64,000 bases of DNA from an uncultured Bacteroidales bacterium (GTDB lineage: Bacteria > Bacteroidota > Bacteroidia > Bacteroidales > UBA932), in contig CALVDP010000003.1 in assembly GCA_944326315.1 (NCBI GenBank), positions 3,842 to 67,841 on the forward strand, written 5' to 3'. The translations under genes and the position numbers were made by a program. The notes beneath the pieces were generated by a model, which saw only the letters and a list, made by a program, of their open reading frames with translations, was not told the origin of the DNA and searched no databases. Below, piece after piece: positions 636 to 45,856 of this stretch (its first letter is position 1; the number at the start of each line of letters is the position of its first letter).

Positions 636-644
636 AGCAGGAGA

Positions 645-2780: not shown

Positions 2781-2872
2781 ATTATTATCAGTCAGATGTC
2801 ATTAATAATGTGTCAAAACAACAAAGGCCTCAGGCATGAAGCCAGGCAAATTTCCAGCGGCGGACAGGAATG

Positions 2873-4669: not shown

Positions 4670-4697
4670 TGCGCTACAATATTATTTGGATAAGCCC

Positions 4698-5066: not shown

Positions 5067-5140
5067 ATTTTCTTTCCTTGTTTTAAGATTCTTTTACGGT
5101 GCAATTATATAACATTATTTCGGATTGGGAAATATTTTTT

Positions 5141-6862: not shown

Positions 6863-6868
6863 CGGATC

Positions 6869-8653: not shown

Positions 8654-8689
8654 ATTGTTGAATTGTCGTCAGTTTAACGGATGACACCT

Positions 8690-9550: not shown

Positions 9551-9563
9551 ATATAAACAAAAC

Positions 9564-9612
9564 GTCTTCCGACGGATCTTTGATTATCATTTTCCCGGAT
9601 CCGCCGGAAGAC
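9564..9612 (-). terminator. Inverted repeat between degP and rpoD, possible leaky terminator
   Basis: 15-bp arms gtcttccgacggatc / gatccgccggaagac (1 mismatch), followed on the minus strand by GTTTTGTTT. Confidence 0.5.
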
Positions 9613-9638
9613 CAGTTTAAAACCGTTTCTGACGGGTC

Positions 9639-11069: not shown

Positions 11070-11206
11070 ATTTTCCAAATTATTGATTTCTCTGCAATAG
11101 CTGACGTCCTCCTTCTTTCCACACATTCCGGCGGGACTGCCAGGTTCCGGAACTGACGGTAAGCAGAAAAATCAAATTATATGCCATGATTAATGCAAGT
11201 TTTTTG

Positions 11207-11214
11207 TATATTTG
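11207..11214 (+). promoter_or_regulatory. Bacteroidetes -7 promoter box, probably for the dnaN operon
   Basis: TATATTTG matches TAnnTTTG; no other such box seen before the dnaN ATG. Confidence 0.55.
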
Positions 11215-11223
11215 CTTAATGTA

Positions 11224-11365
11224 AAGTGAATTCGATGAAATGAATGGAATGAATTTCAGAGAATTACCTCTATAGAGGACGAAGTCCGATGTAAGTTCTC
11301 CCTTACGCAGGGAAGAATTTAAGAGGGATGACACGGAAATGGATAAAGAGATTTCGAAGAAATCG
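11224..11365 (-). mobile_element. MITE-like element copy C (truncated, reverse orientation)
   Basis: Near-identical to reverse complement of 54421-54560; lacks the 55-bp left terminal hairpin and a matching target duplication. Confidence 0.8.
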
Positions 11366-11428
11366 CAATTCAGACCCCGTGACACGACATGCCATTTTAC
11401 ACGGATTTTAACAAATTTATCTTATTAT

Positions 11429-12547
11429 ATGAAACTGGTTATTTCTAGTTCGGAATTATTGAAAGGGATAATGACTGTCGCCAAGGCTATTCCGGCCAAA
11501 TCAGCGCTCCCGATCCTTGAAAACTTCCTTTTCGACCTGAAAGGGAACACCCTTGAGATCACGGCATCTGACTCCGAGCTCACAATGAGGACAAGTATCG
11601 AAGTCGACAACGCTGAGGAAGAAGGGCAGATAGCCATCCCGGCGAAGCATCTGATGGACCTTCTGAAAGAGCTTCCGGACCAGCCGCTTTCCATAAGGAC
11701 AGTGAGCGATACGTCTTTCGAGTTCAGCTGGGCGAACGGAGCTTCCACCCTTCCGTATTTTCCGGCAGGTGACTATCCTCCGTTCACTGACATGGAGGAA
11801 AGCGCAGTGACCCTGGACTTCCCTGCACAAGGCCTGATGGAGGGCATAGCATCTACAATATACGCCACGGCAGACGATGAGATACGGCCGACCATGAACG
11901 GAATATATTTCGACATAGATACGGAATCGACTACATTGGTGGCTTCAGACGCCCACAAGTTGGTGTGCTATACGACCAAGGATGTCAAGGCCTCCGAGAA
12001 AGCGTCATTCATTCTTCACAAGAAGCCGGCCGCCATACTGAGAAGCATCATAGGCAAGAATACGGAAAACGTGAGCATTGCCTTCGATTCGAAGAACGCG
12101 ATGTTCAGGTTCGACGACACAGTCGTGGTCTGCCGCCTTGTAATAGGGAAATATCCGAGATACAGGGATGTGATACCTCAGAACAACAGCAACATCATGA
12201 AGATCGACAGGCTCCAGCTCCTGAACTCCGTCCGCAGGGTATCGGTGTGTGCGAACAAGGGGTCGAACCACATCAAGTTCAACCTGAGTGCGAACTCGCT
12301 GGAGATTACGGCCCAGGATCTCGGCTTCTCGCTTGCGGCATACGAGAAAGTGCCTTGCGAATACGACGGCGACGAGCTCAGCATCGGCTTCAAGTCCACT
12401 TTCCTGATCGAGATACTTGGCAACATCGACTGCAACGAGGTGGTGCTCAAGTTCGCGGACGGGACAAGACCTGCAGTCATCGTTCCTTCCGAAGAAGAAG
12501 AGCAGAGCGAGAAGATATGTGGAATCCTCATGCCTAGCATTGCCTGA
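11429..12547 (+). CDS. dnaN: DNA polymerase III beta sliding clamp
   Basis: PILENFLF, ASDAHKL, GKYPRYRDVIP, IGFKSTFLIEIL; start set at MKLVISS. Confidence 0.95.
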   Translation: MKLVISSSELLKGIMTVAKAIPAKSALPILENFLFDLKGNTLEITASDSELTMRTSIEVDNAEEEGQIAIPAKHLMDLLKELPDQPLSIRTVSDTSFEFSWANGASTLPYFPAGDYPPFTDMEESAVTLDFPAQGLMEGIASTIYATADDEIRPTMNGIYFDIDTESTTLVASDAHKLVCYTTKDVKASEKASFILHKKPAAILRSIIGKNTENVSIAFDSKNAMFRFDDTVVVCRLVIGKYPRYRDVIPQNNSNIMKIDRLQLLNSVRRVSVCANKGSNHIKFNLSANSLEITAQDLGFSLAAYEKVPCEYDGDELSIGFKSTFLIEILGNIDCNEVVLKFADGTRPAVIVPSEEEEQSEKICGILMPSIA

Positions 12548-12552
12548 CAGAT

Positions 12553-13464
12553 ATGGAACTGAATCTTGAAAGGCCGATACTCTTTTTCGACATAGAGAGT
12601 ACCGGTCTGAACATTGCGACCGATGCCATAATAGAGCTCAGCTTCGTAAAGATACTCCCTGGTAACGAAACAAGGGTGAAAACATGGAGAGTGAGGCCAT
12701 GGGACTATGTCGGAGAATGCCAGAGGAAAGTAAATCCGAGCGCATACGAAATACACAAGATAAGCGACGAAGAACTTGCCGGAGAGAAAAGATTCTTCGA
12801 AATATGCGATGAAGTGGAAGAATGGCTGGACGGGTGCGACCTGGCCGGTTTCAATTCAAACAAGTTCGACCTCCCGATGCTAGCGGAAGAACTGGAAAGG
12901 GTGAGAAAATACAGGCACAAGGCCATCCGCACGGATCTGCACAAGATGAGAATGGTGGACGTGCAGAATATCTATCACCAGCTGGAGCCGAGGAACCTCA
13001 AGGCGGCCTACAAGTTCTACTGCGGAAAGGAACTGGAGAACGCACATGCCGCGGAAGCTGATACAATGGCCACATACGAGGTCCTCAAGGCACAGCTTGA
13101 CAAGTATCCGGACCAGCTGAAGAATGATGTTGCCTTCCTGTCGAATTTCTCGGAAAGGCAGAAAATCGTGGACTATGCAGGACGGCTCGTATATAACGAC
13201 AAGAAGGAAGTCGTGATCAATTTCGGGAAACACCGGGGAAAGACCGCGCGGGAAGTGTACGAGACAGAACCGTCATATTTCAGCTGGATCGAGAACGGGG
13301 AATTCACCCTTGATACCAAGCAGCAGTTCAGCCAGCTCCGGCGTCAGTTCGAGGCCGAGAAGCAGGAAGCGAAGAAGGCAGCGATGAAGAAGCTGACTGA
13401 CAAGGAACTGGAGAAGTCTGTCGGCTCTCTGGCAGAAAAATGGGGATCAGGCAGACTCTTCTGA
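12553..13464 (+). CDS. DEDDh 3'-5' exonuclease (DnaQ/epsilon-like)
   Basis: FFDIESTG, GFNSNKFD, AHAAEAD; C-terminal FGKHRGK motif. Confidence 0.88.
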   Translation: MELNLERPILFFDIESTGLNIATDAIIELSFVKILPGNETRVKTWRVRPWDYVGECQRKVNPSAYEIHKISDEELAGEKRFFEICDEVEEWLDGCDLAGFNSNKFDLPMLAEELERVRKYRHKAIRTDLHKMRMVDVQNIYHQLEPRNLKAAYKFYCGKELENAHAAEADTMATYEVLKAQLDKYPDQLKNDVAFLSNFSERQKIVDYAGRLVYNDKKEVVINFGKHRGKTAREVYETEPSYFSWIENGEFTLDTKQQFSQLRRQFEAEKQEAKKAAMKKLTDKELEKSVGSLAEKWGSGRLF

Positions 13465-14033
13465 TGAATATTACTGTCAAGACATACGGTTCCGGGCTTC
13501 TATGCAGACCGGATACGACCTGGGAGAGGGAAAACAAGGATTTTTACTCTCCCGGTTTTGTGCAGGAGATAAGGTATGCTCCAGTGGTGTTCGCCAGGAT
13601 ATGCAAGGCAGGGAAATGCATTTCAGGCAAATTCGCTGCGAGATATTATGACGGACTTAATTTCGGCATGCTGCTCTACCCTGCATTCAAGGATGAACCA
13701 TGGAATACGGCGTCCTCGTCAATATTGGACCATACTTCATTCCTTCCATTCCCTCTGTACCAGCCTGTTGTCTTCGGGAGCAGCGGAAACGGCTTCCGCA
13801 TCATGAAAGACGGAATGCCGCTGTTCTGCACGGAGACCAGAGACGGATATTTCATCAGGCTTGTCGAAGAGTGCCTCACCGAAGCCTCTGCATACGTAAG
13901 CCAGAGGATAGGCGATCTTGTAGCAGTGGAACTTGCCGGACCGGAAAAGCTCATGGGGGAAGACGAAAAAAAAGCCGAAATCAGTGCTTTCTTCTGTGAA
14001 AACGAACTGTTCCGGCTTTCGATATTCAAGTGA
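13464..14033 (+). CDS. Divergent fumarylacetoacetate hydrolase-like protein
   Basis: TGATG overlap with exonuclease; RICKAGKCISGKFAARYYD resembles Bacteroidetes FAH-family proteins. Confidence 0.6.
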   Translation: MNITVKTYGSGLLCRPDTTWERENKDFYSPGFVQEIRYAPVVFARICKAGKCISGKFAARYYDGLNFGMLLYPAFKDEPWNTASSSILDHTSFLPFPLYQPVVFGSSGNGFRIMKDGMPLFCTETRDGYFIRLVEECLTEASAYVSQRIGDLVAVELAGPEKLMGEDEKKAEISAFFCENELFRLSIFK

Positions 14034-14105
14034 GCCACTCACGGGGATCGAACCCGCGACCTACGCGTTACGAATGCGTTGCTCTACCATCTGAGCTAAA
14101 GTGGC
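14033..14105 (-). tRNA. tRNA-Thr(CGT)
   Basis: GCCACTT/GAGTGGC acceptor stem, TAGCTCAGATGGTAGAGC D arm, loop TTCGTAA, GGTTCGATCCC T arm; CCA not encoded. Confidence 0.95.
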
Positions 14106-14151
14106 TTGCTTGTTCTCCCTTTCCTTCACGAAGTGTCCGGAAAAGGGATTG

Positions 14152-14182
14152 CAAAAATACTATATTTTTTTGATAATGCAAA
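14152..14182 (-). promoter_or_regulatory. Promoter of tRNA-Thr
   Basis: Minus-strand TTTG (14179-14182), 19-nt spacer, TATTTTTG (14152-14159). Confidence 0.75.
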
Positions 14183-14210
14183 GAATTTGCACAGAGTCTG
14201 TGTTTTTCCG

Positions 14211-15506
14211 ATGAATGCTGATATTGTAATAATAGGCTGCGGCGCGGCAGGGCTCATGGCCGCCACAGGTGCAGCAAAGACAGGAGCCGGAGTACTTGTC
14301 ATCGAGAAGATGCCGCGTCCCGGAAGGAAAATCATGATAAGCGGGAAAGGCAGATGCAATATCACCAATCTCAAGGACTGGAACAGTTTCTCACAGCATA
14401 TACACCCGAAGGCGAATTTCCTGAAACCGGCATTCTACAATTTGCCGCCGGAAGAGACCATACGCTTCCTGAATGACAACGGGCTTGAAACCGTAGTCGA
14501 GCGTGGAGACCGCGTGTTTCCGGCCTCATACAAGGCTTCGGATGTCGTGGATACGCTGGTGAAGGCCATGAGGCAGGCGGGTGCAAGGCTTATGCCCGGA
14601 ACTGAGACAGCGGACATCTGCAAGTCAGGGGACGGCTTCACGATAAGTCTGGCTGACGGAAAGACAATTGCCGCAAGGAAACTGATCCTGGCTACCGGAG
14701 GGCTCTCCTATCCGGGTACAGGGTCCACCGGCGACGGATACAGGTGGGCGGAAGCGCTGGGACATAAGATAAACAGATGTTTCCCTTCACTGACAGCCCT
14801 TGTCCCCTGCGGATACAAGGCCATACCGGAAAAGGCTCCGGGGAAAGGACATATTGACAGATCCTTGCCGCTTTCAGACCTTGGGAAATCCCTCATGGGA
14901 AACCAGCTCAAGAATGTGACTCTGACAGTGAGTATTGACGGGAACGTAGTCGCGGAAGAATTCGGGGACATCGACTTTACTGACGGCGGGATAGAAGGTC
15001 CTGCAGGCTTCAAGGTAAGCCGGCGCTGCGTGAATGCGCTCTGCAACGGGTCCAAGGTGAAGTTCTCCATTGACCTGAAACCGGCTGTAGCGATGGAAAG
15101 CCTGGCAAAGAGAGTGGAAACCCTGTGGAATGAAATAGCCGGAGACAGACGGAGCAGAGGGAAAAGCGAAAAGGACATGTTCCGGATATTGCTCGGCAAG
15201 CTGCTTCCGATGTCGGTTACTGAAGGCTTCGTGAAGACATGTCCCGGAATGGATACCAGATCATTGTGCAGGAATCTCAAGAACTGGGAATTCAGGATCT
15301 GCGGATATGTCGGATACGAGCGCTGCGTAGTCACTGCAGGAGGAGTGTCCACAGACGAAATCTCTCCGAAGACAATGGAATCCAAAATTGTTCCCGGTCT
15401 CTACTTCGCCGGGGAGATAATGGACCTGGACGGTGATACCGGTGGATATAATCTCCAGACGGCGTTCTCTACAGGAATGCTTGCCGGGATGTCCGCAGCT
15501 AAATGA
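14211..15506 (+). CDS. HI0933/BaiN (YhiN-like) flavoprotein
   Basis: IIGCGAAGLMAA, GRKIMISGKGRCNITN, VTAGGVS, TGGYNLQTAFSTG. Confidence 0.9.
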   Translation: MNADIVIIGCGAAGLMAATGAAKTGAGVLVIEKMPRPGRKIMISGKGRCNITNLKDWNSFSQHIHPKANFLKPAFYNLPPEETIRFLNDNGLETVVERGDRVFPASYKASDVVDTLVKAMRQAGARLMPGTETADICKSGDGFTISLADGKTIAARKLILATGGLSYPGTGSTGDGYRWAEALGHKINRCFPSLTALVPCGYKAIPEKAPGKGHIDRSLPLSDLGKSLMGNQLKNVTLTVSIDGNVVAEEFGDIDFTDGGIEGPAGFKVSRRCVNALCNGSKVKFSIDLKPAVAMESLAKRVETLWNEIAGDRRSRGKSEKDMFRILLGKLLPMSVTEGFVKTCPGMDTRSLCRNLKNWEFRICGYVGYERCVVTAGGVSTDEISPKTMESKIVPGLYFAGEIMDLDGDTGGYNLQTAFSTGMLAGMSAAK

Positions 15507-16935
15507 CACCGGACCCTATCATCTCATCATTGTCATACCATACAGCGAACTGACCCGGGGAGACACCGCGCTGAGGCTCGTCGAAGAGTATGAAAAGTCC
15601 GTTGCGTCTCATGATGAGAGTGGCATCCTGAAGCGGCTGGCGGTAACGTATCCTCACCCTATACCTTCGGATCTCGCCCTCCTGCATGCAAAGGTCCTCC
15701 CTTATCCAGTGCAGGTCTTCCTGCAGGATACGTACGCAGCTTCTTGAAAGCCCCTTATGCGTATGCCCCTCCCCTACGTAAATCGTATTCGACTGTATAT
15801 CTGTCGCTATGACGAAAATGCTGTCCTTGTGGCCTCCGATGTTGAGCCCCTTCCTCTGTCCGATGGTATAGAACTGCGCACCATCATGTTTCCCGATAAT
15901 CCTGCCGTACGGATTATCCTTGTACCTTGTTTTCCTGACATGCTTTCGTCCGGAGCGGTAAGTCTCTGTCTCGAACTGTATGTCATAGGACACAGGCTCA
16001 GACAGGAGCCGGAGAGTCTCATCGGAAAGACCGGAAAGCTTGCATCTGTCGAAAGGTCCGTCACCGGAGCAGCCTCCTTCACGGGACGGGTCGCCCATGA
16101 CGGTTCTCTCATGGACAGCGTCATTGACCTTCAGGGATCTGGTTTCCGATATGTACGAAGTGACCATCTCCACCGGTGTGTCAGCACCGTCCTTGCGAAG
16201 GCCGCCAAGAGTCTGTTCCAGAAAGCGGTAATGCGCATTGTCATGGAAATAGGCGTCAAAGACTTCCACGACATCGCCCTCGGCCGGCTTGAGCTTCTGC
16301 TGGAGGAAGACCGGCAGGTCCACCTTGCCTACGAAACATATCCCCTGGGAATCCTTCTTGTCTGCAGAAGGCAGATCCGCTTCCGCCGCAATCCTGCGCA
16401 CCTCAGGCTTCTTCAAGTCTCCTATCGGGAAAAGCGCACGCGAAAGCTGACTCTGGGACAGCTGGCACAGGAAATAACTCTGGTCCTTGTCCGGATCCAA
16501 GCCTGCAAGAAGCCTGTATACCGGCATGCCGTCCGCGCCCTGTATCTCGTCTTTCCTGCAATAATGTCCTGTCGCCACATATTCGGCGCCAAGCCTGGCG
16601 GCACACTTCATGAAAGCATCGAACTTGATCTCACGGTTGCACAGCACATCCGGATTCGGTGTCCTTCCCTTCGAGTACTCATCGAACATATAGTCTACCA
16701 CGCGCTTGCGGTATTCTTCGCTGAGATCGACGAAATAGAACGGTATGCCAATCTTCCGGGCGACCATTTCCGCGACAAAACGGTCCTCTTCCCATTCGCA
16801 CTCCCCGTGCAACGTCCCTTCTGTATCATGCCAGTTCTGCATGAACAGTGCGAACACATCATAACCGGCCCTTTTGAGAAGAAGGGCGGCGACGCTGGAA
16901 TCGACTCCACCGGACAGACCGATGCATACTTTCAT
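15499..16935 (-). CDS. mnmA: tRNA 2-thiouridine(34) synthase with large internal insertion
   Basis: SGGVDS, NPDVLCN, KDQSYFL, DSQGICF, TIGQRKGL, PGQFAVWY. Confidence 0.95.
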   Translation of the reverse strand: MKVCIGLSGGVDSSVAALLLKRAGYDVFALFMQNWHDTEGTLHGECEWEEDRFVAEMVARKIGIPFYFVDLSEEYRKRVVDYMFDEYSKGRTPNPDVLCNREIKFDAFMKCAARLGAEYVATGHYCRKDEIQGADGMPVYRLLAGLDPDKDQSYFLCQLSQSQLSRALFPIGDLKKPEVRRIAAEADLPSADKKDSQGICFVGKVDLPVFLQQKLKPAEGDVVEVFDAYFHDNAHYRFLEQTLGGLRKDGADTPVEMVTSYISETRSLKVNDAVHERTVMGDPSREGGCSGDGPFDRCKLSGLSDETLRLLSEPVSYDIQFETETYRSGRKHVRKTRYKDNPYGRIIGKHDGAQFYTIGQRKGLNIGGHKDSIFVIATDIQSNTIYVGEGHTHKGLSRSCVRILQEDLHWIREDLCMQEGEIRRYRVRIRYRQPLQDATLIMRRNGLFILFDEPQRGVSPGQFAVWYDNDEMIGSGVI

Positions 16936-17036
16936 ATTTACTGCCTTTTGTTGTGATTATTATTCAAAAAACGCCAAAATTACAAGCATTTATAAGAAAA
17001 ACAATGATTTATATTCACAATCATAAGCAATTTTCT

Positions 17037-17044
17037 TATATTTG
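17037..17044 (+). promoter_or_regulatory. -7 promoter box of cdd
   Basis: TATATTTG 7 nt before the ATG at 17052. Confidence 0.6.
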
Positions 17045-17051
17045 CCTTACT

Positions 17052-17525
17052 ATGGAACAGAAAGAACTCAATATCAGCTATAAGGAATACGGCAATGTTT
17101 CCGAACTCAGCCCTGAAGACAGGCTCCTGGTGGAACAGGCAGTGAAAGCCACCCTTAATTCCTATGCTCCATACTCACGATTCCACGTCGGTGCCGCTGT
17201 ACGGCTCTCAAACGGGGAAACGGTATCCGGAAGCAACCAGGAAAATATCGCCTACCCTTCCGGGCTGTGCGCCGAACGGACCGCCATGTTCTACGCCAGC
17301 TCCAGGTATCCGGAGGCGGCAATGGAGGCAATAGCGATAGCCGCATCCAAAGACGGAGAACTCTGCAGCATGCCGGCAACTCCATGCGGAGCATGCAGAC
17401 AGGTAATGGCCGAGTACCAGACCCGTTCCGGAAAGAATATGAAAATAATACTTGCCGGTTCAGACAAAATCATGGAATTCGACAAGGTGGACGATATCCT
17501 TCCGTTTATCTTCGACAGCCTGTAG
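17052..17525 (+). CDS. cdd: Cytidine deaminase
   Basis: YAPYSRFHVGAA, CAERTA, PCGACRQ. Confidence 0.93.
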   Translation: MEQKELNISYKEYGNVSELSPEDRLLVEQAVKATLNSYAPYSRFHVGAAVRLSNGETVSGSNQENIAYPSGLCAERTAMFYASSRYPEAAMEAIAIAASKDGELCSMPATPCGACRQVMAEYQTRSGKNMKIILAGSDKIMEFDKVDDILPFIFDSL

Positions 17526-17586
17526 ACGTTTCCCTCTACGGCCATACCTCCATATATGCAGCCTGAAGAACATTTCCTGAATATTT

Positions 17587-17617
17587 TTTGAAATCCAGGA
17601 AAAAAACATTACTTTTG
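17587..17617 (+). promoter_or_regulatory. Promoter of SRP RNA
   Basis: TTTG (17587-17590), 19-nt spacer, TACTTTTG (17610-17617). Confidence 0.8.
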
Positions 17618-17621
17618 CATC

Positions 17622-17717
17622 GGGTAAGTCATACACGACCAGCTCCTGCTGAATCCCCCAGGACCGGAAGGTAGCAAGGGTAGGCGGTTGTAGCGGTGCG
17701 ATGTATCAAGCTTACCC
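17622..17717 (+). ncRNA. ffs: Bacterial small SRP RNA (4.5S)
   Basis: Domain IV motif CAGGACCGGAAGGTAGCA; terminal helix GGGTAAG/CTTACCC followed by a T-run. Confidence 0.9.
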
Positions 17718-17731
17718 TTTTTTCGTTTATC

Positions 17732-18175
17732 TCAGGCCTTCTTCGGATTATCCTTTGCAGCCGCCTGATGCTCCGAAGCCTTTTCCGGCTGTTTCTTGAG
17801 CAATTCGGCCGCAGCCTTCTCATAATCCTGCTCTGAAATCATCTTGCACGTGCCGTTGAAAGAGGCGCCGAGCTCAACAATAAGACGGCGGACCTTGAGT
17901 TCACCATCCACGGAACAGTCGCTCTTGATGGACATGATGTCCTTGACTGTAAAGCATCCGTGAGCCTTGCCCCATACATCGGCATTCACACAGACAACGG
18001 TAGCATTCACTTCAGCGCTCTCCCCTATCACTACCTTTCCTTCGGAAATGATGCTGCCGTCGAACTTGCCGTCGATGCGCAAATCATTCGGAGAGACGAT
18101 CTCTCCCTTGAAATAAGTTCCTGCAGATATACGGCTGACTAGATTGACATTAGCAGCCTGTTCGATTTTGGCCAT
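17732..18175 (-). CDS. Bactofilin (polymer-forming cytoskeletal protein)
   Basis: ISAGTYFKGEI, LRIDGKFDGSI, VVIGESAEV beta-helix repeats. Confidence 0.85.
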   Translation of the reverse strand: MAKIEQAANVNLVSRISAGTYFKGEIVSPNDLRIDGKFDGSIISEGKVVIGESAEVNATVVCVNADVWGKAHGCFTVKDIMSIKSDCSVDGELKVRRLIVELGASFNGTCKMISEQDYEKAAAELLKKQPEKASEHQAAAKDNPKKA

Positions 18176-18210
18176 AATATTTGGTTTTCTTGTTGTCAGT
18201 AAACTTTATA

Positions 18211-18256
18211 CGTCAGAGGAATGGTCTCAAACGGACTTTTGATCCACCCTCTGACG
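18211..18256. repeat. Degenerate REP-like palindrome downstream of secA
   Basis: cgtcagagg ... cctctgacg arms with internal caaa/ttttg, like other GAGGGTG..CACCCTC palindromes here. Confidence 0.5.
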
Positions 18257-18331
18257 AAATCTTTTGTCGGATCTGCGTACACAGGCATGTCCCATACTGC
18301 CTCATCCCCGACGGTCTGTCGCCGTACCGTA

Positions 18332-21300
18332 TCAGGCGAGGTTCTTTCCGTGGCAGTTCTTGTATTTCTTGCCTGAACCGCACGGGCACGGATCGTTCCT
18401 GCCCACTGTCTTCTCCACATGCACCGGCATCCTGCTCTTCTGGTCAGGACCGTTAGTGACAAGATCTGTCCTGCTGGTCCTCATCTGGCTCATGTCAGGC
18501 TTGCGTTCCTGTGTAGGGGCCTTGACCTGCGTAGTGTCCCTGAGCGGAATGTGTGCCCTGAAAAGGAAGGACAGAATATCCTTGTTCAAGGATTCAAGCA
18601 TGGACTTGAACAGGTTGAAACTTTCGAACTTGTATATGAGAAGCGGATCCTTCTGCTCATAAGTGGCATTCTGTACAGACTGCTTGAGGTCGTCCATGTC
18701 ACGGAGATGCTCTTTCCAGTGCTCGTCAATCTGATAGAGAGTGATGGTCTTGCTCAGTGCGCGGGCTATCTCCCTGCCCTCTGTCTCGTATGCCTTCTTG
18801 AGATTTACGGAAAGGGTAAGCATCTTCCTGCCGTCTGAAATAGGGATGGCTATATTCTGGTATATGGCACCCTGCTTCTCGTACACTTCCTTGATAATAG
18901 GAGCCGACCTCTGAGCCATGGTGTCCATCCTGCGGTCATAGACCTCACGCATGTTCTGGTAGAGCCTTTCGGCAAGCTCCTTAGGTGTAGCCTTGTTGTA
19001 GAATGCCTCGTCGAAGCCTGCATCTATCGACATCAGCCTCATGACCTCTTCATTGAACGAGTTGAAATCATATCCCTGGCAGTTGTCCACAAGGATGTCG
19101 GCAGTGTCCTGCATCATGTTCATGACATCGATGTCCACCTTGTCACCCACAAGGGCATTCCTTCTCTTGGTATAGATGACTTCCCTCTGGGAGTTCATGA
19201 CATCGTCGTATTCAAGGAGCCTCTTTCTGATACCGAAGTTGTTCTCTTCGACCTTCTTCTGGGCTCTTTCGATGGACTTCGAGAGCATGGAGGATTCCAG
19301 AGCCTCATTGTCCTGCATTCCGAGCTTGTCCACCACGGCTGCGATACGCTCCGAGCCGAAAAGCCTCATGAGCTTGTCCTCAAGGGATACATAGAACATG
19401 GATGAACCAGGGTCACCCTGACGTCCGGCACGTCCGCGCAACTGTCTGTCGACACGGCGGCTGTCATGTCTCTCCGTACCTATGATGGCAAGACCGCCTG
19501 CCTTGCGCACTTCGTCCGAAAGCTTGATATCGGTACCTCGACCCGCCATGTTGGTAGCGATGGTCACCGTACTTGTCTGGCCGGCATGCGCCACGACCTC
19601 GGCCTCACGGGCGTGCTGCTTGGCGTTCAGGACCTGATGCTGGATACCTCTGAGCTTGAGCATCCTGCTCAAGAGCTCCGATGTCTCGACATCGGTGGTG
19701 CCGACCAGTACCGGCCGGCCCTCAGAGGTCAGCTCCTCTATCTTGTTTATCACAGCCTCGTACTTGGCCTTCTTGGTCTTGTATATCTGGTCATCATAGT
19801 CGATACGGGCTACCGGCCTGTTGGTCGGTATGACCACGACATCGAGCTTGTATATCGACCAGAACTCACCTGCCTCGGTCTCTGCAGTACCAGTCATTCC
19901 GGCAAGCTTGTGATACATACGGAAGTAATTCTGCAATGTAATCGTGGCGAATGTCTGCGTAGCCGCCTCGACCTTCACGTTCTCCTTGGCCTCCACAGCC
20001 TGGTGAAGCCCGTCACTCCAGCGGCGCCCCTCCATGATACGGCCGGTCTGCTCGTCGACAATCTTCACCTTGTTGTCCATAATCACATAGTCGATATCCT
20101 TCTCGAACATCGCATACGCCTTCAAAAGCTGGCTTACCGTATGGACACGCTCCGACTTGAGGGCATAGTCCGCCATGATCTCGTCTTTCCGTACACTCTT
20201 CTCCTCCGGGGTCAGGTCGCTCTTCTCCACATCAGCCACGGCGCTTCCCACATCAGGAAGTATGAAGAACTTGGGATCCGAAAGGGTGCTGCTGAGCAGG
20301 TCATGGCCGTTGTCCGTCATCTCCACGGAATGCTGTTTCTCGTTGATGACGAAGTACAGAGGATCTGTCACTATAGGCATCTCCCTCTCGTTGTCCTGGA
20401 TATAGTAGTTCTCAGTCTTCTGGAGAATCTGTTTGATACCCGGCTCGCTGAGATACTTGATAAGCGGCTTGTATTTTGGAAGTCCCTTGTATGCACGCAG
20501 GAGCAGCTTGCCGCCCTCCCTTTCATCGCCCGAAGCGATCAGTTTCTTGGCCTCGTTGAGAGTCGATGTCACCAGTGTCTTCTGATTGCTGTAGAGCTTC
20601 TCGACATAAGGCTTGAAATCCAGGAACTTCTGGTCATCGCCTTTTGGTACGGGACCGGATATGATAAGAGGCGTCCTCGCGTCGTCTATAAGGACGGAGT
20701 CAACCTCATCGACTATTGCATAATGATGCTTCCTCTGGACAAGATCCCTCAGCGAAACAGCCATGTTGTCTCTCAGGTAATCGAAGCCGAACTCGTTGTT
20801 CGTACCGAATGTGATGTCGCAGGCATAGGCCTTCTTCCTCGCCTCGCTGTTCGGCTGGTGCTTGTCTATGCAGTCTACGGACAGGCCGTGGAACATATAA
20901 AGCGGACCCATCCACTCCGAGTCTCGCTTTGAGAGGTAGTCGTTCACTGTGACTACATGCACTCCCTTGCCGGCCAATGCATTGAGAAATACCGGCAATG
21001 TCGCCACAAGGGTCTTTCCCTCACCGGTAGCCATCTCAGCGATCTTGCCTTGATGGAGTACGATACCGCCTATAAGCTGGACATCATAATGCACCATATC
21101 CCAGGTGACTTCGTTGCCGCCTGCCATCCAATGGTTCTGCCAGATGGCATCGTCACCTTCTATCCTCACAAAATCCTTGGTGGCACTCAGCTGTCTGTCG
21201 AAGTCCGTAGCCTTTACACGTATCTCAGGGTTCTCCTTGAATCTTCTGGCTGTAGACTTCATCACGGCAAATGCCTCCGGAAGTATCTCTTCAAGCACCT

Positions 21301-21604
21301 TCTCTATCTCCTCATCAACCTTCTTGACAAGCTTGTCGGACTCTGTGGCCAGAGCCTCTTTCCTGTCCACCGGTATATCTTTCTCCAGTTCTTCCTTTAT
21401 CTGTGCTATACGGGTCTCGTCTTCGGCTATCCTGTCACGGATAATCTGCCTGAGTCCGGCCGATCTGGCCCTCAACTCATCCACAGGAAGCTTATCGATC
21501 TCGTCATACGCCTTCAGGATTTTGGCGAGTATCGGCTGCAGCTGCTTCAGGTCTCTCTCAGCCTTCGTCCCGAACATTTTCTTGAACAAATCTGCTACTG
21601 ACAT
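18332..21604 (-). CDS. secA: Preprotein translocase ATPase SecA
   Basis: [40 protein letters not shown]-terminal [13 protein letters not shown]. Confidence 0.98.
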
Positions 21605-21678: not shown

Positions 21679-21703
21679 CTAATATTTATTGATATAAAGA
21701 ATA

Positions 21704-21800
21704 ATATCCGCCATATCGGGATCATATCGACATATATCGACGCATATCGGCACATATCGGGATCATATCGACATATATCGGGATCAAATCGGAATCAAAT
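21704..21800. repeat. Tandem ATATCG array with 10-11 bp period
   Basis: ATATCG at 21713, 21724, 21734, 21744, 21754, 21765, 21775; AAATCG at 21786. Confidence 0.9.
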
Positions 21801-24245: not shown

Positions 24246-24247
24246 AG

Positions 24248-24318
24248 TTGAGATACCAAGATTCGAACTTGGACAGACAGAACCAAAATCTGTAGTGCTA
24301 CCATTACACCATATCTCA
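24248..24318 (-). tRNA. tRNA-Gln(TTG)
   Basis: TGAGATA/TATCTCA acceptor stem, ACAGA-TTTTGGT-TCTGT anticodon arm, GTTCGAATC T loop; promoter box TATATTTG at 24328-24335. Confidence 0.95.
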
Positions 24319-24433: not shown

Positions 24434-25312
24434 ATGCGCAAGACACTTGACAACGGCATTCTGACAATCGAGGCAGACAGCCATGGCGCGGAACTTTGCA
24501 GTATCCGCAGGAACGGTACGGAATATCTCTGGCAGGCCGACCCGGCTTTCTGGGGGCGTCATTCGCCAGTGCTTTTCCCTATTGTCGGGAAAGTATGGGA
24601 AGACAGATACAGGGTAGACGGACGGGAATTCAGCCTGTCACAGCACGGATTCGCCAGGGACATGGAATTCTCGCCGGTACGGGACGAAGACAATGAGATG
24701 ATGTTCAGGCTGGAGGATACAGCCGCAACCATGGAGAAGTATCCCTTCCATTTCTGTCTTGAAATAGGCTACAGACTCGAAGGGGATGAAATCAAGGTGC
24801 TCTGGAAAGTCCGCAATACGGGTGACGGGACTATGTATTTCCAGATAGGGGCGCATCCGGCATTCCTGTATCCCGACTATGTGCCAGGGACATCCGGAAG
24901 AGGATTTTTCCATTTCGGAGGGAAAAAAGACATAGGGTACATACTGATCAGCGAGAAAGGCTGCGCCGACACCGCACACAGATACACCCTCGGCATGGAC
25001 GGGGAATATATGCCGCTTGATACGGGAACATTCGACAAGGACGCACTGATCATAGACAATTCCCAGGTGGACAAGGTCACGCTCTGCCGTCAGGACAAAT
25101 CGCCATGGCTCAGTCTGAGCTTCAAGGCTCCGGTCGTAGGACTATGGTCGCCTCCGGGCAAGGACGCACCCTTCGTATGCATCGAGCCGTGGTACGGACG
25201 CTGCGACAGGACCGGATACACGGGAGACATCAAGGACAGGGACTGGATGAATGCCCTGGCCCCGGGAGCGATATTCGAAAGCTGCTACACCATCAGGCCC
25301 GAGGTACGGTAA
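24434..25312 (+). CDS. Aldose 1-epimerase family protein (LacX-like)
   Basis: HGAELCSI, EYLWQAD, PVLFPIVG, HGFARD, FQIGAHPAF, FVCIEPW. Confidence 0.9.
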   Translation: MRKTLDNGILTIEADSHGAELCSIRRNGTEYLWQADPAFWGRHSPVLFPIVGKVWEDRYRVDGREFSLSQHGFARDMEFSPVRDEDNEMMFRLEDTAATMEKYPFHFCLEIGYRLEGDEIKVLWKVRNTGDGTMYFQIGAHPAFLYPDYVPGTSGRGFFHFGGKKDIGYILISEKGCADTAHRYTLGMDGEYMPLDTGTFDKDALIIDNSQVDKVTLCRQDKSPWLSLSFKAPVVGLWSPPGKDAPFVCIEPWYGRCDRTGYTGDIKDRDWMNALAPGAIFESCYTIRPEVR

Positions 25313-25380
25313 GAAATCAGACATCGCCAGACCCGGGACACGATAAGAAATCGGACACCATCAGGCCCGAGGTACGGTAG
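25284..25380 (+). repeat. 34-bp tandem repeat (~2.7 units) at a convergent gene junction
   Basis: acaccatcaggcccgaggtacggta at 25287 and 25355; degenerate middle unit 25310-25343. Confidence 0.85.
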
Positions 25381-25382
25381 TA

Positions 25383-27452
25383 TCAGGAATTGCCCATCGG
25401 GTCAGAAAAGGATACCATATCCTCCATATCGACCTGCTCCGGATAAAGGATGATGAAATTCCCTATCGACTGGTTCCGGAGCAGAAGCTGCGGAAGCTTG
25501 TCCAGAACCGGATTGTATGATATCGAGCCGCTTCTTGCGCTCACGACCACAAGGATATCCTCCGGTTTCATTTCCGCGGACATCTGTTCCTGCAACGAAA
25601 GCCTCTCGACAGGAAGGAATCTGGATGAGGTCCCGAATCCGTAATACGAAGCTTTCTTCCGGATCTGCTCCATCGTGACATTCTCGGATATGAAACTTAT
25701 CCTGCACCCGAGCTGGCCCGACATGCGGCCGAGATGTCCCATCCATCTTGAAAACCCGGCCTCGTATTCAGCACGTGGAGGGACTATGACATGTATGGCC
25801 TTGAGAGTATTGACAGGAATTGTCAGCCTTGCGACTATCACCTCCACACTCGTCCCCCTGAGCAGATTGCTTGTCAGTGCCCCGAAAAATGAATCGAGAA
25901 AGCCTGTCTTCTGATGAAGGCCAAGGACTATATCCGTAGCAGAATATTCCTTGAGAGTGTGTATGATACCTGTCGATATGCTGATATCGTAGCGGCTCAC
26001 CATGCTGAGGCTGACATCGGCCGCAGCCGCGATTTGCGCAGCCTTTTCCAGCCCGCGTCTTCCGCTTGCCGCCCTGTCACCGGCGTTGTCAGAATCCACC
26101 GTGACATTGAGGGCGACGAAATCCCCTCCTGCCCTCGGCTTCATTATGACAAGGGCAAGGTTGATAAGGTTCTCTATCGTATCCGGATTCGCTATCGGTA
26201 TCAGAATACGTTCCTTGGAATTGTCCCTGACCTCTGTTCCTGACGGCTGGCCGCCTGTCGCAAGCTTCCGGCCGGACCAGTCGGTGACAAGCGAACTGAT
26301 GATGCATGTGAAAAGTATCATCACCACTGTGCCGTTCAGCACATCATCGTTCAGAAGCCGCTCCCCGTTCTCCATGATTATCCCGTGTCCGACAAGGACC
26401 GCAGCAAGCGTAGCAGCAGCCTGAGCGTTGCTGAGCCCGAACATCATGCCTCTCTCGTCACGTGACATGCCGAACATCTTCTGAGTCCCCCATGCAGCAA
26501 GCCACTTGCTCAATGTTGCCACCACAGTCATGACCACCGCGACCTTCAGTGCCGTCCCTCCGGCGAAAAGCGTACGCACGTCTATGATCATCCCGACACC
26601 TATCAGGAAATACGGGATAAACAGCGCATTGCCCACGAATTCAAGCCTGTTCATCAACGGCGACACCCTCGGTATGAGCGGATTGAGCACAATCCCCACA
26701 AGGAAGGCACCGAGAATGCCTTCCATACCGGCAAGCGACATAAGGCCTCCCCCAAGGAAGACCATCGCGAGCACGAAGACGAACTGCATGACGGGATCAT
26801 CATACTTGCGGAAGAACCACCTGCCCAGCATCGGGAAACAGAATACTATGAGAAGGCTTATCAGCACCACATTGATGAAGAGAAGAAGCCAGTAGAGACC
26901 GTCGGAAGTTCCCTTGTACATGCCGCTTATCACTGCAAGGATGATAAGGGCCAGGGTGACAGTGATGACAGTCCCCCCTATCGTGATATTGACGCTCCTC
27001 TGCCTCGCGAGCCCGTACCTGCTTACTATCGGGTATGCGACAAGGGTATGGGAGGCGTACATGCTCGCCAGCAATATGGATGTCGTCAGGGAATAATCCA
27101 GGAGCGAGATACTGCTCCATATCCCGAGAGCCATGGGGATAGTGAATGTAAGAATGCCGAACACAAGTCCCTTGACCTTGTTTTTCCGGAAATCCTCCAG
27201 GTCCATCTCAAGACCGGCGAGGAACATAATATAGAAAAGCCCCACACGGCCGAACAGCTCGAAACTGCTGTCCCTTTCAAGGATATTGAAACCGAACTCG
27301 CCCACAGCCACACCGGCAAGAATCATCCCGATGATGTGTGGAATCCTCAACCGTCCGAGAAGAAGCGGAGCGAAAAGAATAATTATCAATACTATAAGAA
27401 AAATCCACGTAGGATCTGTTACAGGAAGGTTGAATACAGAGAGCAGGTCCAT
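25383..27452 (-). CDS. Cation:proton antiporter (CPA2) with C-terminal USP-like domains
   Basis: Many TM helices, EGILGAFLVG, FIPYFLIGVG; soluble RILIPIANPDT region. Confidence 0.88.
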   Translation of the reverse strand: MDLLSVFNLPVTDPTWIFLIVLIIILFAPLLLGRLRIPHIIGMILAGVAVGEFGFNILERDSSFELFGRVGLFYIMFLAGLEMDLEDFRKNKVKGLVFGILTFTIPMALGIWSSISLLDYSLTTSILLASMYASHTLVAYPIVSRYGLARQRSVNITIGGTVITVTLALIILAVISGMYKGTSDGLYWLLLFINVVLISLLIVFCFPMLGRWFFRKYDDPVMQFVFVLAMVFLGGGLMSLAGMEGILGAFLVGIVLNPLIPRVSPLMNRLEFVGNALFIPYFLIGVGMIIDVRTLFAGGTALKVAVVMTVVATLSKWLAAWGTQKMFGMSRDERGMMFGLSNAQAAATLAAVLVGHGIIMENGERLLNDDVLNGTVVMILFTCIISSLVTDWSGRKLATGGQPSGTEVRDNSKERILIPIANPDTIENLINLALVIMKPRAGGDFVALNVTVDSDNAGDRAASGRRGLEKAAQIAAAADVSLSMVSRYDISISTGIIHTLKEYSATDIVLGLHQKTGFLDSFFGALTSNLLRGTSVEVIVARLTIPVNTLKAIHVIVPPRAEYEAGFSRWMGHLGRMSGQLGCRISFISENVTMEQIRKKASYYGFGTSSRFLPVERLSLQEQMSAEMKPEDILVVVSARSGSISYNPVLDKLPQLLLRNQSIGNFIILYPEQVDMEDMVSFSDPMGNS

Positions 27453-27545
27453 ATGTCCGTTTTTAATCTGCAGGCACACCGTCAGGTGCACCGTTTTTTT
27501 TAACAAAAACAACGTCAGTGCGACGCATCAATTCATGTAAATTTA

Positions 27546-27862
27546 ACGTCAGTTCGACGAATTATTCTGTTCAGTATCAGAGATCCCGTCGAACTGACGT
27601 TACGATTTCTCCGAAATCCCTCTCCTTTTTCGTGTCACCCCTCTTAAAGAGGGTGACTCAAAAGTGACTTTTGGTCACCCTCAAACGTCTTTCTTCGAAA
27701 GACTGGACCCATCCTAACCCCCTGTACCCCCTATTAGGGGGATATCGCTTCCTCCGGTCGCGGTCCCTTCGGGACTTTTGACCCAGCCTCCTTACGCCGG
27801 ACTTCGTCCTCCATAGAGGTAATTCGATGAAATTCATTCCATTCATTTCATCGAATTCGCGT
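27546..27862 (+). mobile_element. MITE-like element copy A (317 bp, long central cassette)
   Basis: Ends ACGTCAGTTCGACG / CATCGAATTCGCGT; flanked by perfect direct repeats TAAATTTA (27538-27545, 27863-27870). Confidence 0.85.
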
Positions 27863-27936
27863 TAAATTTAGCAAATAACGGCGGATTTGCATGAAAATAT
27901 TTGCAGAAATGTCTTCAGAAATGTCTTCTGCGCCGC

Positions 27937-29043
27937 TCAGCTCTGCTTCTTGTATGTGACTACGGCAAATATATTGATGACCACAGCAAATACCGAAAGC
28001 ATGACAAAATCAAATGTCAGGTCGGAGAAGCTGCTGCCCTTCAGGCACACTGCCCTCAGTATATTCACGAAATACCTTGTAGGAAGGATGTATGTCACAT
28101 ACTGCGACCATGTCTCCATGGAGCTGACAGGAGTGAAAATACCACTCATCAGCATGAATATCAGGACAAAGAAGAGCATCAGGAAAACAGACTGGAGCAT
28201 GGTCTCGGAATAATTGGAGATGATTAGTCCGAAACCTCCCATGAACACGAGGAAAATCATTGAGCTCACATATATCTCCAGAAGACCTCCGTGTGATGCC
28301 AGGCCGTATACGAAATGGGCTATCACTATGGCCAGCGTGAATGCGAAGATCCCGAGAATCCCATAGAAGACGACCTTGGAAAGGATAAAGTCCCTTTTCC
28401 GCACAGGAGAGACATTGATCTGCTCGATAGTGCCGTTTTCCTTTTCGGAGACAATGCTCAGCGTAGGGAAAAAGCCGCCCACAAGAATTATGACCACAAT
28501 CATCAGGGCCGGGACCATGAAAAGTTTGTATTCAAGATGCGGATTATACCTGTATTGCGGGATAATTGTCAGCGGTGAGGAGGTCTCAAGGCCGGATGAG
28601 CCGGACAACTCGGCGGAATAGTCTGTCACGATAGACGAAAGATAGCCTCCGCCCATCGTCCCCTTGGTATTGTTCACGGCATTGGCCGCTATCAGTATCT
28701 CCACGTTCTCCCCGTTGCCGACAGACCGCTCCGCCCCCTCGGGTATCTCCATGATAATGTCCGCACGCCCCTTGCTGAGCTGCTCCATCGCATCCTCGTA
28801 GGAATCTTCATAGGAGGAAAAGACAAAGTATCCCGAACGAGAGATTCTGTCAATGAGCTGTGTGGACATGGTGGAACGGTCCCTGTCCACTATGGACAGC
28901 CGGACATCCCTCACCTCCATGTTGGCGGCAAGCGGGACCACAAGCATGAGGAGGAGAGGAAGCAGGATCAGGACCACCGGCATGAAAGGATTGGACTTGA
29001 ACTGCCTGGCTTCCTTGACGAACAGATATCCGAATGCTGACAT
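27937..29043 (-). CDS. ABC-2 type transporter permease
   Basis: SIVSEKENGTIEQINVSP, LMSGIFTP; start set at MSAFGYL. Confidence 0.9.
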   Translation of the reverse strand: MSAFGYLFVKEARQFKSNPFMPVVLILLPLLLMLVVPLAANMEVRDVRLSIVDRDRSTMSTQLIDRISRSGYFVFSSYEDSYEDAMEQLSKGRADIIMEIPEGAERSVGNGENVEILIAANAVNNTKGTMGGGYLSSIVTDYSAELSGSSGLETSSPLTIIPQYRYNPHLEYKLFMVPALMIVVIILVGGFFPTLSIVSEKENGTIEQINVSPVRKRDFILSKVVFYGILGIFAFTLAIVIAHFVYGLASHGGLLEIYVSSMIFLVFMGGFGLIISNYSETMLQSVFLMLFFVLIFMLMSGIFTPVSSMETWSQYVTYILPTRYFVNILRAVCLKGSSFSDLTFDFVMLSVFAVVINIFAVVTYKKQS

Positions 29044-29054
29044 AATATATTTAC

Positions 29055-30194
29055 CTATAGCTTGTCCTTGAATTTCACTACGGCAGCCGTGAAGAACATG
29101 GCCGCCATACCTGTCATTACCAATATTTCCATGGTCACATACCTGACCGGAACACCTTCTATCATGATCTTCCTGATGGCTTCTATGAACCATTTGGCCG
29201 GAATCACCTGGGCGAACCACTGCAGGGCCACAGGCATGCTTTCGATAGGGTAAAGCATGCCGCTGAACATCATCACCGGCACCAGGAAAATCATTCCGCA
29301 GATAAGCGTGGCTATTATCTGCGTACGTACAAGAGATGATACAAGCATGCCTATCCCGAGAGACAATATTATATAGATGACAGATACAAGAATCATCCAG
29401 AAAAAGCTTCCGGCCACAGGGACCTTAAGCACGAATATGGTCAGCAGCAATATGTTCAGAAGTACGACACATGCTATCACGAAATAAGGTATCATCTTGG
29501 CCAGCACTATGTTGATAGGCCTGACAGGAGAGACAAGAAGTACCTCCATGCTGCCTGTCTCCTTCTCCCGGACTATGGACACCGATGTCATGAGGGAGCA
29601 TATAAGCATCAGTATGAGCCCCATGATCCCGGGAACGAAGTTGTACGAACTCTTCAATTGCGGATTGTACAGCATGCGGAGGTTGGGGACAAGCATGCCG
29701 GACGCCGAAGACATGTTGGCCGACGCAGCCATACGCATGGATACGGACCTGGAGATGTCACTGCCGAAATATTCGTTGATAATACTGGCCAGATACATCA
29801 CTTCCATCGATGCGTTGTTCGGATTCGTGGCATCGGTGACGACAGAGACCACCGCACCTTCCGGGCTGTAAAGTCCTGAAGTGAAATCGCTCCCGAACAT
29901 CAGAGCCACGTCTATCCTTCCCTGCCTCATCGCCTCGTCTATCTCAGCCTCAGACCTCATCCATCCCACGCTTGTGAAATATCCGCTCTGGTCTATCTTG
30001 TCTGCAAGCCTTGACAGTACGGCATCTTCCTGCGGAGAGAAGAAGCCGATATTGACATTCCTTATCTCCGTAGAAATGGCAAAGCCGAACAGCACAATCA
30101 GCATGGTCGGCAGCCCTATGAGCACAAGAAGAGTCTTCCTGTCCCTGAAAATATGCAGGAACTCTTTCCTTACAAATGCGAAAAATTCTTTCAT
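29055..30194 (-). CDS. ABC-2 type transporter permease
   Basis: KEFLHIFRD, SIVREKETGSMEVLLVSP, FSGMLYPIESMP. Confidence 0.9.
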   Translation of the reverse strand: MKEFFAFVRKEFLHIFRDRKTLLVLIGLPTMLIVLFGFAISTEIRNVNIGFFSPQEDAVLSRLADKIDQSGYFTSVGWMRSEAEIDEAMRQGRIDVALMFGSDFTSGLYSPEGAVVSVVTDATNPNNASMEVMYLASIINEYFGSDISRSVSMRMAASANMSSASGMLVPNLRMLYNPQLKSSYNFVPGIMGLILMLICSLMTSVSIVREKETGSMEVLLVSPVRPINIVLAKMIPYFVIACVVLLNILLLTIFVLKVPVAGSFFWMILVSVIYIILSLGIGMLVSSLVRTQIIATLICGMIFLVPVMMFSGMLYPIESMPVALQWFAQVIPAKWFIEAIRKIMIEGVPVRYVTMEILVMTGMAAMFFTAAVVKFKDKL

Positions 30195-45688: not shown

Positions 45689-45750
45689 GCCGGAAGCCGA
45701 TTTTGATGTTTTTATTATCTTGGCAAAGATATTAAATTAAAGGCAAATAA

Positions 45751-45781
45751 TTGTGGATTTATACATTTTTTTATAAATTTG
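45751..45781 (+). promoter_or_regulatory. Promoter of TPR-yebC unit
   Basis: TTG (45751-45753), 20-nt spacer, TAAATTTG (45774-45781). Confidence 0.6.
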
Positions 45782-45856
45782 CGCGCTGCTTTGTCCGGCT
45801 GTACACCGGTGTCGGAAAGGCGGCCATGAAGTTGCAAAATCTAAAAGTTTCAGAAT

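Follow-up and report, generated by a model that had tools for sequence, protein, structure and literature searches.

This locus raises the question of how two copies of one repeat came to carry different DNA between the same two anchors. Repeat finding and alignment across the window (i.e., the whole 64-kb stretch of DNA analysed here) identified three copies of an intergenic element, designated A, B, and C (Table 1). Copies A and B were 96% identical over the 105 nt to the left of the anchor CCCCTCTTAAA and 93% identical over the 74 nt to the right of the anchor CTTACGCCGGAC. Between these anchors, B presented a 22-bp hairpin (TTCTCCCCTGCGTAGGGGAGAA), C presented a variant of this hairpin with two substitutions, and A presented 142 bp (27649-27790), a cassette that we refer to as E2. 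This exchange of a 22-bp hairpin for a 142-bp cassette had been described in an earlier, sequence-only reading of the window, and our alignments found it at the same positions. The evidence presented here indicates that copy A is quite probably one non-autonomous mobile element nested in another, the outer one being a MITE (miniature transposon) and the inner one being E2.

Table 1. Positions of the repeat copies, their modules, and selected neighbouring features (window coordinates unless a contig is named).
Feature	Position	Strand	Remarks
MITE copy A	27544-27864	+	Long form, 321 bp, M1-M2-E2-M4-M5; repeat families D1/D2, empty-site contigs, depth
MITE copy B	54362-54562	+	Canonical short form, 201 bp, M1-M2-M3-M4-M5; empty-site contig
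Copy C	11222-11372	-	Degenerate, no M1; between htrA-like and dnaN genes
M1, left terminal hairpin with left terminal inverted repeat	27544-27602	+	Perfect 16-bp inverted repeat TAACGTCAGTTCGACG / CGTCGAACTGACGTTA, 27-nt loop
M2 (in A)	27603-27648	+	GATTTC-TCC-GAAATC hairpin (27604-27618), pyrimidine tract, then GTCACCCCTCTTAAA
M3, central 22-bp hairpin			In B and C; E2 stands in its place in A
E2, 142-bp cassette	27649-27790	+	Hairpins s1, s2, s4, s6; ends 14/17 inverted repeats
E2 s1	27649-27682		
E2 s2	27687-27703		GTCTTTC-TTC-GAAAGAC
E2 s4	27727-27741		CCCCCT-ATT-AGGGGG
E2 s6	27763-27775		GTCCC-TTC-GGGAC
M4	27791-27820	+	CTTACGCC, then GGAC-TTC-GTCC (27799-27809), then CCTCCATAGAGG palindrome (CCTC..GAGG)
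M5, right terminal hairpin	27821-27864	+	AATTCGATGAAAT(11 nt)ATTTCATCGAATT plus right terminal inverted repeat ...CGCGTTA
Direct repeat TAAATTTA, left copy	27538-27545		8 nt; last TA also readable as element end
Direct repeat TAAATTTA, right copy	27863-27870		
Direct repeat TATCAATA flanking B	54356-54363 and 54561-54568		
Extra half-site like terminal inverted repeat, CAACGTCAGTGCGACG	27510-27525	+	14/16; 18 nt upstream of copy A
Solo s1-like hairpin, GAGGGTGAC..GGCACCCTC-AAACGTTTTTT	62190-62233	+	77% over 44 nt
Solo s6-like module, TCGCGGTCC-ATTCA-GGACTTTTGA	54621-54644	+	Within GAGAGGGG/CCCCTCTC hairpin; 20/22 over 54623-54644
Na+/H+ exchanger gene	25383-27452	-	One side of copy A gap
ABC-2 permease gene	27937-29193	-	Other side of copy A gap
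tRNA-Thr(CGT)	14032-14105		
Bacteroidales small SRP RNA	17615-17721		110.8 bits
tRNA-Gln(TTG)	24247-24318		
CCGGCAGAT(..)ATCTGCCGG hairpin family	L006:7600-7720; L011:9990-10030; L012:6380-6470; L015:13640-13700		

The ends of the outer element are inverted repeats (ACGTCAGTTCGACGAA and ACGTGAATTCGATGAA). Over the first 18 nt, the left end (TAACGTCAGTTCGACGAA) matched the reverse complement of the right end (TAACGTGAATTCGATGAA) at 15 positions in B and 14 in A; in B, the alignment of the ends extends to approximately 41 nt, with a score that none of 1000 shuffles of B's end reached. Similarity boundaries of copy B clustered at 54362 and 54562, and the right end of M5 has the general form CRCGTTA. 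Copy C, in which this right end is mutated to ACTTTA, lacks the whole left terminal hairpin and presents an unrelated 21-nt left end instead; this copy is absent from L012, a contig syntenic with the window from SecA to htrA.

Alignment of Logan contigs of chicken-gut metagenomes to loci A and B revealed precise empty sites at both. At locus A, one contig each in X12 and X25 joins 27537 to 27863, with eight letters (TAAATTTA) that fit both sides, while at locus B an X15 contig joins 54355 to 54561, with nine letters (TATCAATA(A)) that fit both sides; in these contigs, the duplicated TAAATTTA and TATCAATA are each reduced to one copy. The whole of A, cassette included, is an insertion flanked by duplicated target, and presence of the element is polymorphic among strains. 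Direct repeats abutting the ACGT...ACGT core were also found elsewhere, i.e., TCTCTTA (L020-L022), TACATTA (L006/L007), TATATA (L004), and TATTTA (L011), with lengths differing from 6 to 8 bp; no flanking direct repeat was found at L001 or L002. From these sequences, we read the target duplication as probably 7-8 bp long and located in AT-rich DNA, although A and B can equally well be read as having a 4-bp duplication plus a terminal TA. Across copies, a 4-bp duplication with TA inside the element was set aside in favour of 7-8 bp, since L020 lacks the right TA and has a 7-bp repeat directly adjoining ACGT; a TA-only (mariner-like) duplication was ruled out by the empty-site sequence. Inverted-repeat ends together with target duplications fit a double-strand DDE-type mechanism and not an HUH/RAYT mechanism.

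Summed contig depth over A was 500-5500, as compared to approximately 7 in the flanks, and in four DNA metagenomes the depth of the element was 300-700 times that of the flanks; copies were found at unrelated intergenic sites in several metagenome-assembled genomes. Head-to-tail tandem MITE copies, 1-3 nt apart (T, AT, ACT), were represented by joints from 54562 to 54362 in runs X12, X15, and X16. No transposase was found in the 64-kb window (about 50 proteins scanned against Pfam), and no gene in approximately 290 kb of loci was surrounded by a matching pair of MITE ends. Being short and without a transposase of its own, with inverted-repeat ends, a target duplication, and many dispersed copies, the outer element is a bacterial MITE. 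BLAST searches of plasmids and phages gave no match to the family, scans of JGI metagenomes with the M5 loop and with the E2 pattern gave 0 matches each, as did scans of viral contigs, and no Rfam 15 model matched the element at its gathering score (best E-values 0.29-0.72, far below gathering). The ORFs inside the element (201-321 bp) are accidental open frames of 62-94 aa without a Pfam domain; the short form is open in one frame over its full length (54285-54569; 66 aa), and the long form yields a 62-aa ORF spanning the cassette (27658-27846, minus strand). Protein databases contain accidental ORFs of this kind (P0001-P0022), and none of these has a Pfam domain.

A search of the protein database with this 62-aa cassette ORF yielded 12 similar spurious ORFs, and the encoding contigs of eight of these were retrieved. 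Nine complete solo copies of E2, without an adjacent MITE module, were identified in eight other contigs (L012, L013, L014, L015 [twice], L016, L017, L018, and L019). All nine start with GAGGGTGAC and end with GACCCAGCCNC, and their flanks are mutually unrelated. In metagenome contigs with heterogeneous flanks, similarity likewise starts at 27649 and stops at 27788, and the same was found at the E2 borders in L003. The ends of E2 (GAGGGTGACTCAAAAGT versus the reverse complement GAGGCTGGGTCAAAAGT) agree as inverted repeats to an extent that only 1 of 1000 shuffles equalled. No target duplication was found at any E2 copy examined, and the 11 E2 5′ flanks share no motif and no tetra- or pentanucleotide target. 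No empty site for E2 was found at L003 in metagenome contigs, and the intergenic DNA of L012 is too diverged from that of the window for base-level placing of the E2 insertion.

Several E2 variants were identified, including one with a duplicated s2 (L015), one with duplicated s4-s5 (L017), and a sub-family (L014, L017, and L018) in which GGTCCC-TTC-GGGACT has changed, in a compensatory manner, to GGTCAC-TTC-GTGACT. In L016, a 73-nt insert (CCATTGACGAAC...CAGTTTAAC; L016:802-874 within the E2 copy at 714-926) lies inside hairpin s2, where it replaces 2 nt; the junctions of this insert were also present in several DNA and RNA metagenome contigs (X5, X29, and X31), with loose ends at window positions 27700/27703. 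This insert is a third nesting level at a hairpin. Two modules resembling parts of E2 stand alone in the window (Table 1). The s1-like hairpin is located 41 nt after the stop codon of the gene for ATP-synthase subunit c and looks like a terminator.

The left 105 nt of A are 99% identical to the short-form copy in L004, with which A shares a TCC loop variant. Its E2 matches the solo copy in L016 at 100% identity in four of five module segments (s1, s3-s4, s5, and s6), the s2 of the L016 copy being interrupted by the insert. On these matches, A belongs to a short-form sub-lineage that gained a current E2 variant. E2 replaces M3 exactly in A, and M3 is not split; this counts against a simple insertion, which would split or flank the 22-bp hairpin. 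The contig L003, from another genome, contains E2-M4-M5 with the same E2|CTTACG junction and no left arm, and L005 contains only the last 7 nt of E2 and M4-M5. The left junction (TTAAA|GAGGGTGAC) recurs with differing right-hand content in A, L008-L010, L011, and several metagenome contigs. In L008-L010, it is followed by an s1-like hairpin only, and in L011 (82-87% diverged), s1-s4 of E2 stand ahead of a retained M3-like hairpin. Forms without M3 and M4 were also present in metagenome contigs (joints from 27645 to 27831 and from 54464 to 54529). Because the left-arm junction recurs in diverged copies, the MITE middle counts as a recurrent junction, for which either a hotspot or shared ancestry is required. 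The GTCACCCCTCTTAAA at the end of M2 is complementary to the first arm of E2, and the MITE's GTCACCCCTC, also complementary to this arm, is near-identical to the second arm of E2's first hairpin, a likeness that provides homology for recombination or template switching. No contig with the short form was found at locus A, such that both an in-place exchange and the transposition of a pre-formed composite fit.

There are thus two independent repeat families, one nested in the other, with a recurrent junction between them. The sequence-only reading had anticipated part of this: the cassette, of which it had seen single modules elsewhere, stands alone at nine other sites, the fixed internal site that it postulated corresponds to the junction of the left arm and the central hairpin, and both solo modules that it listed (at 62190 and 54621) are present. 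It had also named, as a case that would speak against it, a long form that arose by nested insertion only once and brought a target duplication along; the nesting found here is recurrent, and E2 lacks a duplication.

Folding of A as ssDNA predicted a chain of local hairpins, with z = -9.4 for the plus strand and z = -9.0 for the minus strand; B presented z = -8.1 (both versus dinucleotide shuffles). The four TTC-loop stems of the sequence-only reading (in M2, s2, s6, and M4) were predicted on both strands and had been read correctly, except that the substitution in A's GATTTC hairpin affects the loop (TTC to TCC) and not the stem. The window contains seven perfect stems of 5 bp or more that enclose a TTC/GAA triloop, as compared to 2.4 ± 1.3 expected (maximum of 6 in 50 shuffles); four of the seven lie in these repeats. 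The loop conservation that had been predicted was found in almost all copies. In s2 and s6, the TTC loop does not vary among the eight complete aligned E2 copies or in any other copy examined; the M2 loop is TTC in most copies (TCC in A and L004), as is the M4 loop (ATC in L002), and in L011 the GGAC-TTC-GTCC of M4 is replaced by an 8-bp stem with a TCC loop. On the opposite (minus) strand, s2, s6, and M4 of A and M2 of B and C read C-GAA-G and fall within the definition of the stable mini-hairpin; a GNA triloop closed by a C-G pair, of the d(GCGAAGC) type, forms an extraordinarily stable DNA mini-hairpin (PMC13037366, PMC3201870). The covariation that the sequence-only reading had proposed as a test amounted to a single compensatory pair among eight E2 copies that are 94% alike, a score reached by 15 of 500 shuffles; the MITE copies are 92% alike, and the double change in the central hairpin of C is not compensatory. 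With copies 92-94% identical and one compensatory pair, covariation is uninformative here. TTCGA-type motifs are present in every module, terminal repeats included, suggesting that the loops may owe as much to a motif bound by a protein in duplex DNA as to a single-strand fold.

The sequence-only reading had interpreted the element as folded ssDNA or a cruciform, in which an HUH enzyme (IS200/IS605- or RAYT-type) or a structure-specific enzyme recognises C-GAA-G and captures or swaps REP-like modules at a fixed internal site. The TTC of all four triloop hairpins on one strand, with the very stable C-GAA-G on the other (PMC13037366, PMC3201870), the loops conserved almost throughout, together with one compensatory change in a stem, and the recurrent left junction fit this proposal, although L011 has a different stem and loop where GGAC-TTC-GTCC stood. 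Insertions do fall at hairpins (E2 at the central hairpin and the 73-nt insert inside s2 in L016 and in metagenome contigs), and E2 lacks a target duplication; however, E2 ends in inverted repeats, its 5′ flanks share no tetra- or pentanucleotide, and the outer element has inverted-repeat ends and 7-8-bp duplications, which IS200/IS605 and REP/RAYT elements do not make. Moreover, no GTAG tag is located next to any hairpin, the genes to which that reading had pointed (RAYT/HUH, DUF559, and GIY-YIG) are absent from the 64 kb, as is any transposase, and the orientation of the element is mixed, with A on the plus and C on the minus strand among same-strand genes and hence no orientation rule. We consider this mechanism quite unlikely, although for E2 it may still hold. 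A related proposal, i.e., hierarchical nesting aimed at hairpins, in which E2 and the s2 insert would be moved by an enzyme (IS110/IS1111-like or HUH-type) that recognises palindromes or extruded C-GAA-G mini-hairpins, with the MITE centre as its landing pad, appears unlikely as well; if true, it would represent an undescribed, hairpin-targeting mobile system in Bacteroidales.

A functional role of the modules as RNA or transcription signals (e.g., terminators, mRNA-stabilising 3′ hairpins, or a small RNA), with the long and short forms as selected regulatory alleles, seems improbable to us. The strong folding on both strands is consistent with such a role, and the solo s1-like hairpin at 62190 is located past a stop codon and terminates in a run of T, while E2 in L003 begins 19 nt past a stop codon; however, the orientation to neighbouring genes is inconsistent for both elements, no Rfam family matches, and strains without A or B exist. 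All modules are present in metatranscriptome contigs, in which E2 showed an approximately 3- to 10-fold excess over MITE ends relative to DNA runs, but contig depth is a poor expression measure, RNA libraries may contain DNA, and the samples differ. Together with the solo hairpin at 62190, these contigs point, weakly, to transcription of E2-type hairpins, possibly as terminators. A chimeric misassembly of repeats, or chance, would also produce a long form, and repeats do break short-read assemblies, with Logan contigs ending at module borders. This seems extremely improbable to us, as an RNA-run contig covers almost all of E2 unbroken (27659-27790), the E2|CTTACG junction is also present in another genome (L003), and P0011, 98% identical to the ORF across E2-M4-M5 of A, comes from a separately deposited 58-kb contig, possibly locus A itself.

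Nesting of E2 in the MITE, with recombination among selfish hairpin repeats, accounts most simply for a cassette pattern that is itself real. Each MITE end would fold back on an internal copy to form the terminal hairpins M1 and M5, and the MITE would insert into AT-rich intergenic DNA with target duplications of 7-8 bp. Its conservation is limited to the ends, with a dispensable middle that contains nothing, the 22-bp hairpin and M4, or larger inserts. E2, a second repeat whose own ends are imperfect inverted repeats and which contains four hairpins, would have taken the place of the central 22-bp hairpin in A's lineage; we infer that it either transposed into the palindromic centre or arrived through recombination or template switching between hairpin arms, the latter route being aided by GTCACCCCTC. 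The composite would then have moved, or been lost, as a single unit via its outer ends. The TTC/GAA-loop hairpins may most simply be regarded as sequence features of selfish repeats, with transcription termination or RNA stabilisation as possible side effects. The elements are an undescribed family of ordinary selfish intergenic DNA and do not by themselves reveal a new mechanism.

The closest analogues appear to be Correia, BOX, and ERIC elements and BIME mosaics (PMC3049150, PMC3333891, PMC3116915, PMC3733652). Similar to the elements described here, the Correia elements (CREE) of Neisseria are non-autonomous (about 100-160 bp), with terminal inverted repeats and a target duplication, and occur in hundreds of intergenic copies with length variants by an internal segment and strongly folded transcripts (for background, see PMC3049150). 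However, they have a TA duplication and 26-bp inverted repeats, while the MITE has a probable 7-8-bp duplication, each of its ends is a hairpin with an internal copy of the terminal repeat, and its internal variant is an independent repeat family and not a deletion; there is no sequence similarity. The BOX elements of Streptococcus pneumoniae (boxA-boxB(n)-boxC) are likewise modular, intergenic, transcribed, and highly base-paired, with conserved ends and a variable middle (PMC3049150), but this middle varies in tandem copy number of one module, while here it is the 22-bp hairpin, E2, or nothing, and E2 also occurs solo. REP/BIME/REPIN sequences, which go with RAYT transposases, form mosaics of short intergenic palindromes that, like E2, lack a target duplication, and are presumed to function in folded, single-stranded form (PMC3333891, PMC3116915, PMC3733652); other insertion sequences also insert preferentially into REPs (PMC1525189). 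In contrast, the elements described here have no GTAG tag, the outer one duplicates its target, and no RAYT gene was seen in the window. Membership in the CGTC-tagged REPs was rejected; CGTC overlaps s2 and M1, but the stems have 4-7 bp and the loops 3 nt, as compared to 8-9-bp stems and 4-5-nt loops (PMC3733652). A palindrome-associated element derived from IS200/IS605 was rejected as well, given the inverted-repeat ends and duplication of the outer element, the 14/17 ends of E2, and the lack of a 5′ motif in 11 flanks.

The enterobacterial 127-bp ERIC/IRU elements are imperfect palindromes of similar size in transcribed intergenic regions, but belong to another phylum and have another sequence. 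Longer ERIC variants carry extra DNA at fixed internal sites; this extra DNA is not known to occur as an independent repeat family. Among Bacteroidales, our literature search found MITEs only in Porphyromonas gingivalis, where they are small non-autonomous repeats of the same order (PMC2575886, PMC5771137). These are tied to known ISPg elements, whereas no partner insertion sequence was found for the family described here, and no sequence relationship between the two is evident. No match to the repeat family was found in literature, Rfam, plasmid, or phage searches.

The repeats are extremely abundant in uncultured chicken-gut Bacteroidales, with a summed depth hundreds of times that of single-copy DNA; they fragment short-read assemblies of uncultured genomes and seed spurious ORFs in protein databases. 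As strains differ in which insertions they have, the insertions provide ready strain markers. Bacteroidales MITEs are barely documented outside Porphyromonas, and a described family with a nested partner would aid annotation. The pair also offers a natural system for how elements without target duplications choose palindromic targets.

The window represents a Bacteroidales chromosome with housekeeping genes only (e.g., SecA, dnaN, recF, Ffh, MetH, and V-type ATPase). Its DNA is present in chicken and bird gut metagenome runs, and its closest public relatives are chicken- or animal-gut ‘Candidatus Cryptobacteroides’ and uncultured Bacteroidales metagenome-assembled genomes. Copy A is located in a 484-bp gap between two minus-strand genes. 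In L012, from a related species, 3090-15121 is syntenic with window positions 9639-21604 (including secA, bactofilin, dCMP deaminase, mnmA, dnaN, and htrA), and the two differ as to which intergenic gaps contain the MITE, E2, or an M1 fragment (L012:7917-7974).

At approximately 45688-45857, gene orientation flips from mostly minus to plus and the GC and AT skews change sign; recF and a DciA-like gene are located immediately to the left of this switch. A replication origin near 45.7 kb was considered, but the search for a DnaA-box cluster gave none to support it. The gap upstream of secA (21700-21800) contains about ten ATATCG-type motifs spaced by approximately 10 bp (CATATCGGGATCATATCGACATATATCG twice, and variants), which could represent a putative protein-binding array. 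A perfect 25-bp direct repeat (25287-25311 and 25355-25379) was found between convergent genes; in this small tandem duplication, the final codons of the aldose-1-epimerase gene, stop codon included, are copied 68 bp downstream. The gap between secA and the bactofilin gene contains, on the reverse strand (18175-18332), a hairpin (CGTCAGAGG...CCTCTGACG) with a loop that includes GGGTGGATCAAAAGTCC, resembling the inverted 3′ end of E2 (GGCTGGGTCAAAAGTCC); this resemblance may mark a relic or be due to chance. Several short intergenic repeat families are present in these genomes, including a further, often tandem, hairpin family (CCGGCAGAT(..)ATCTGCCGG; Table 1) that adjoins E2 or MITE copies at several loci.
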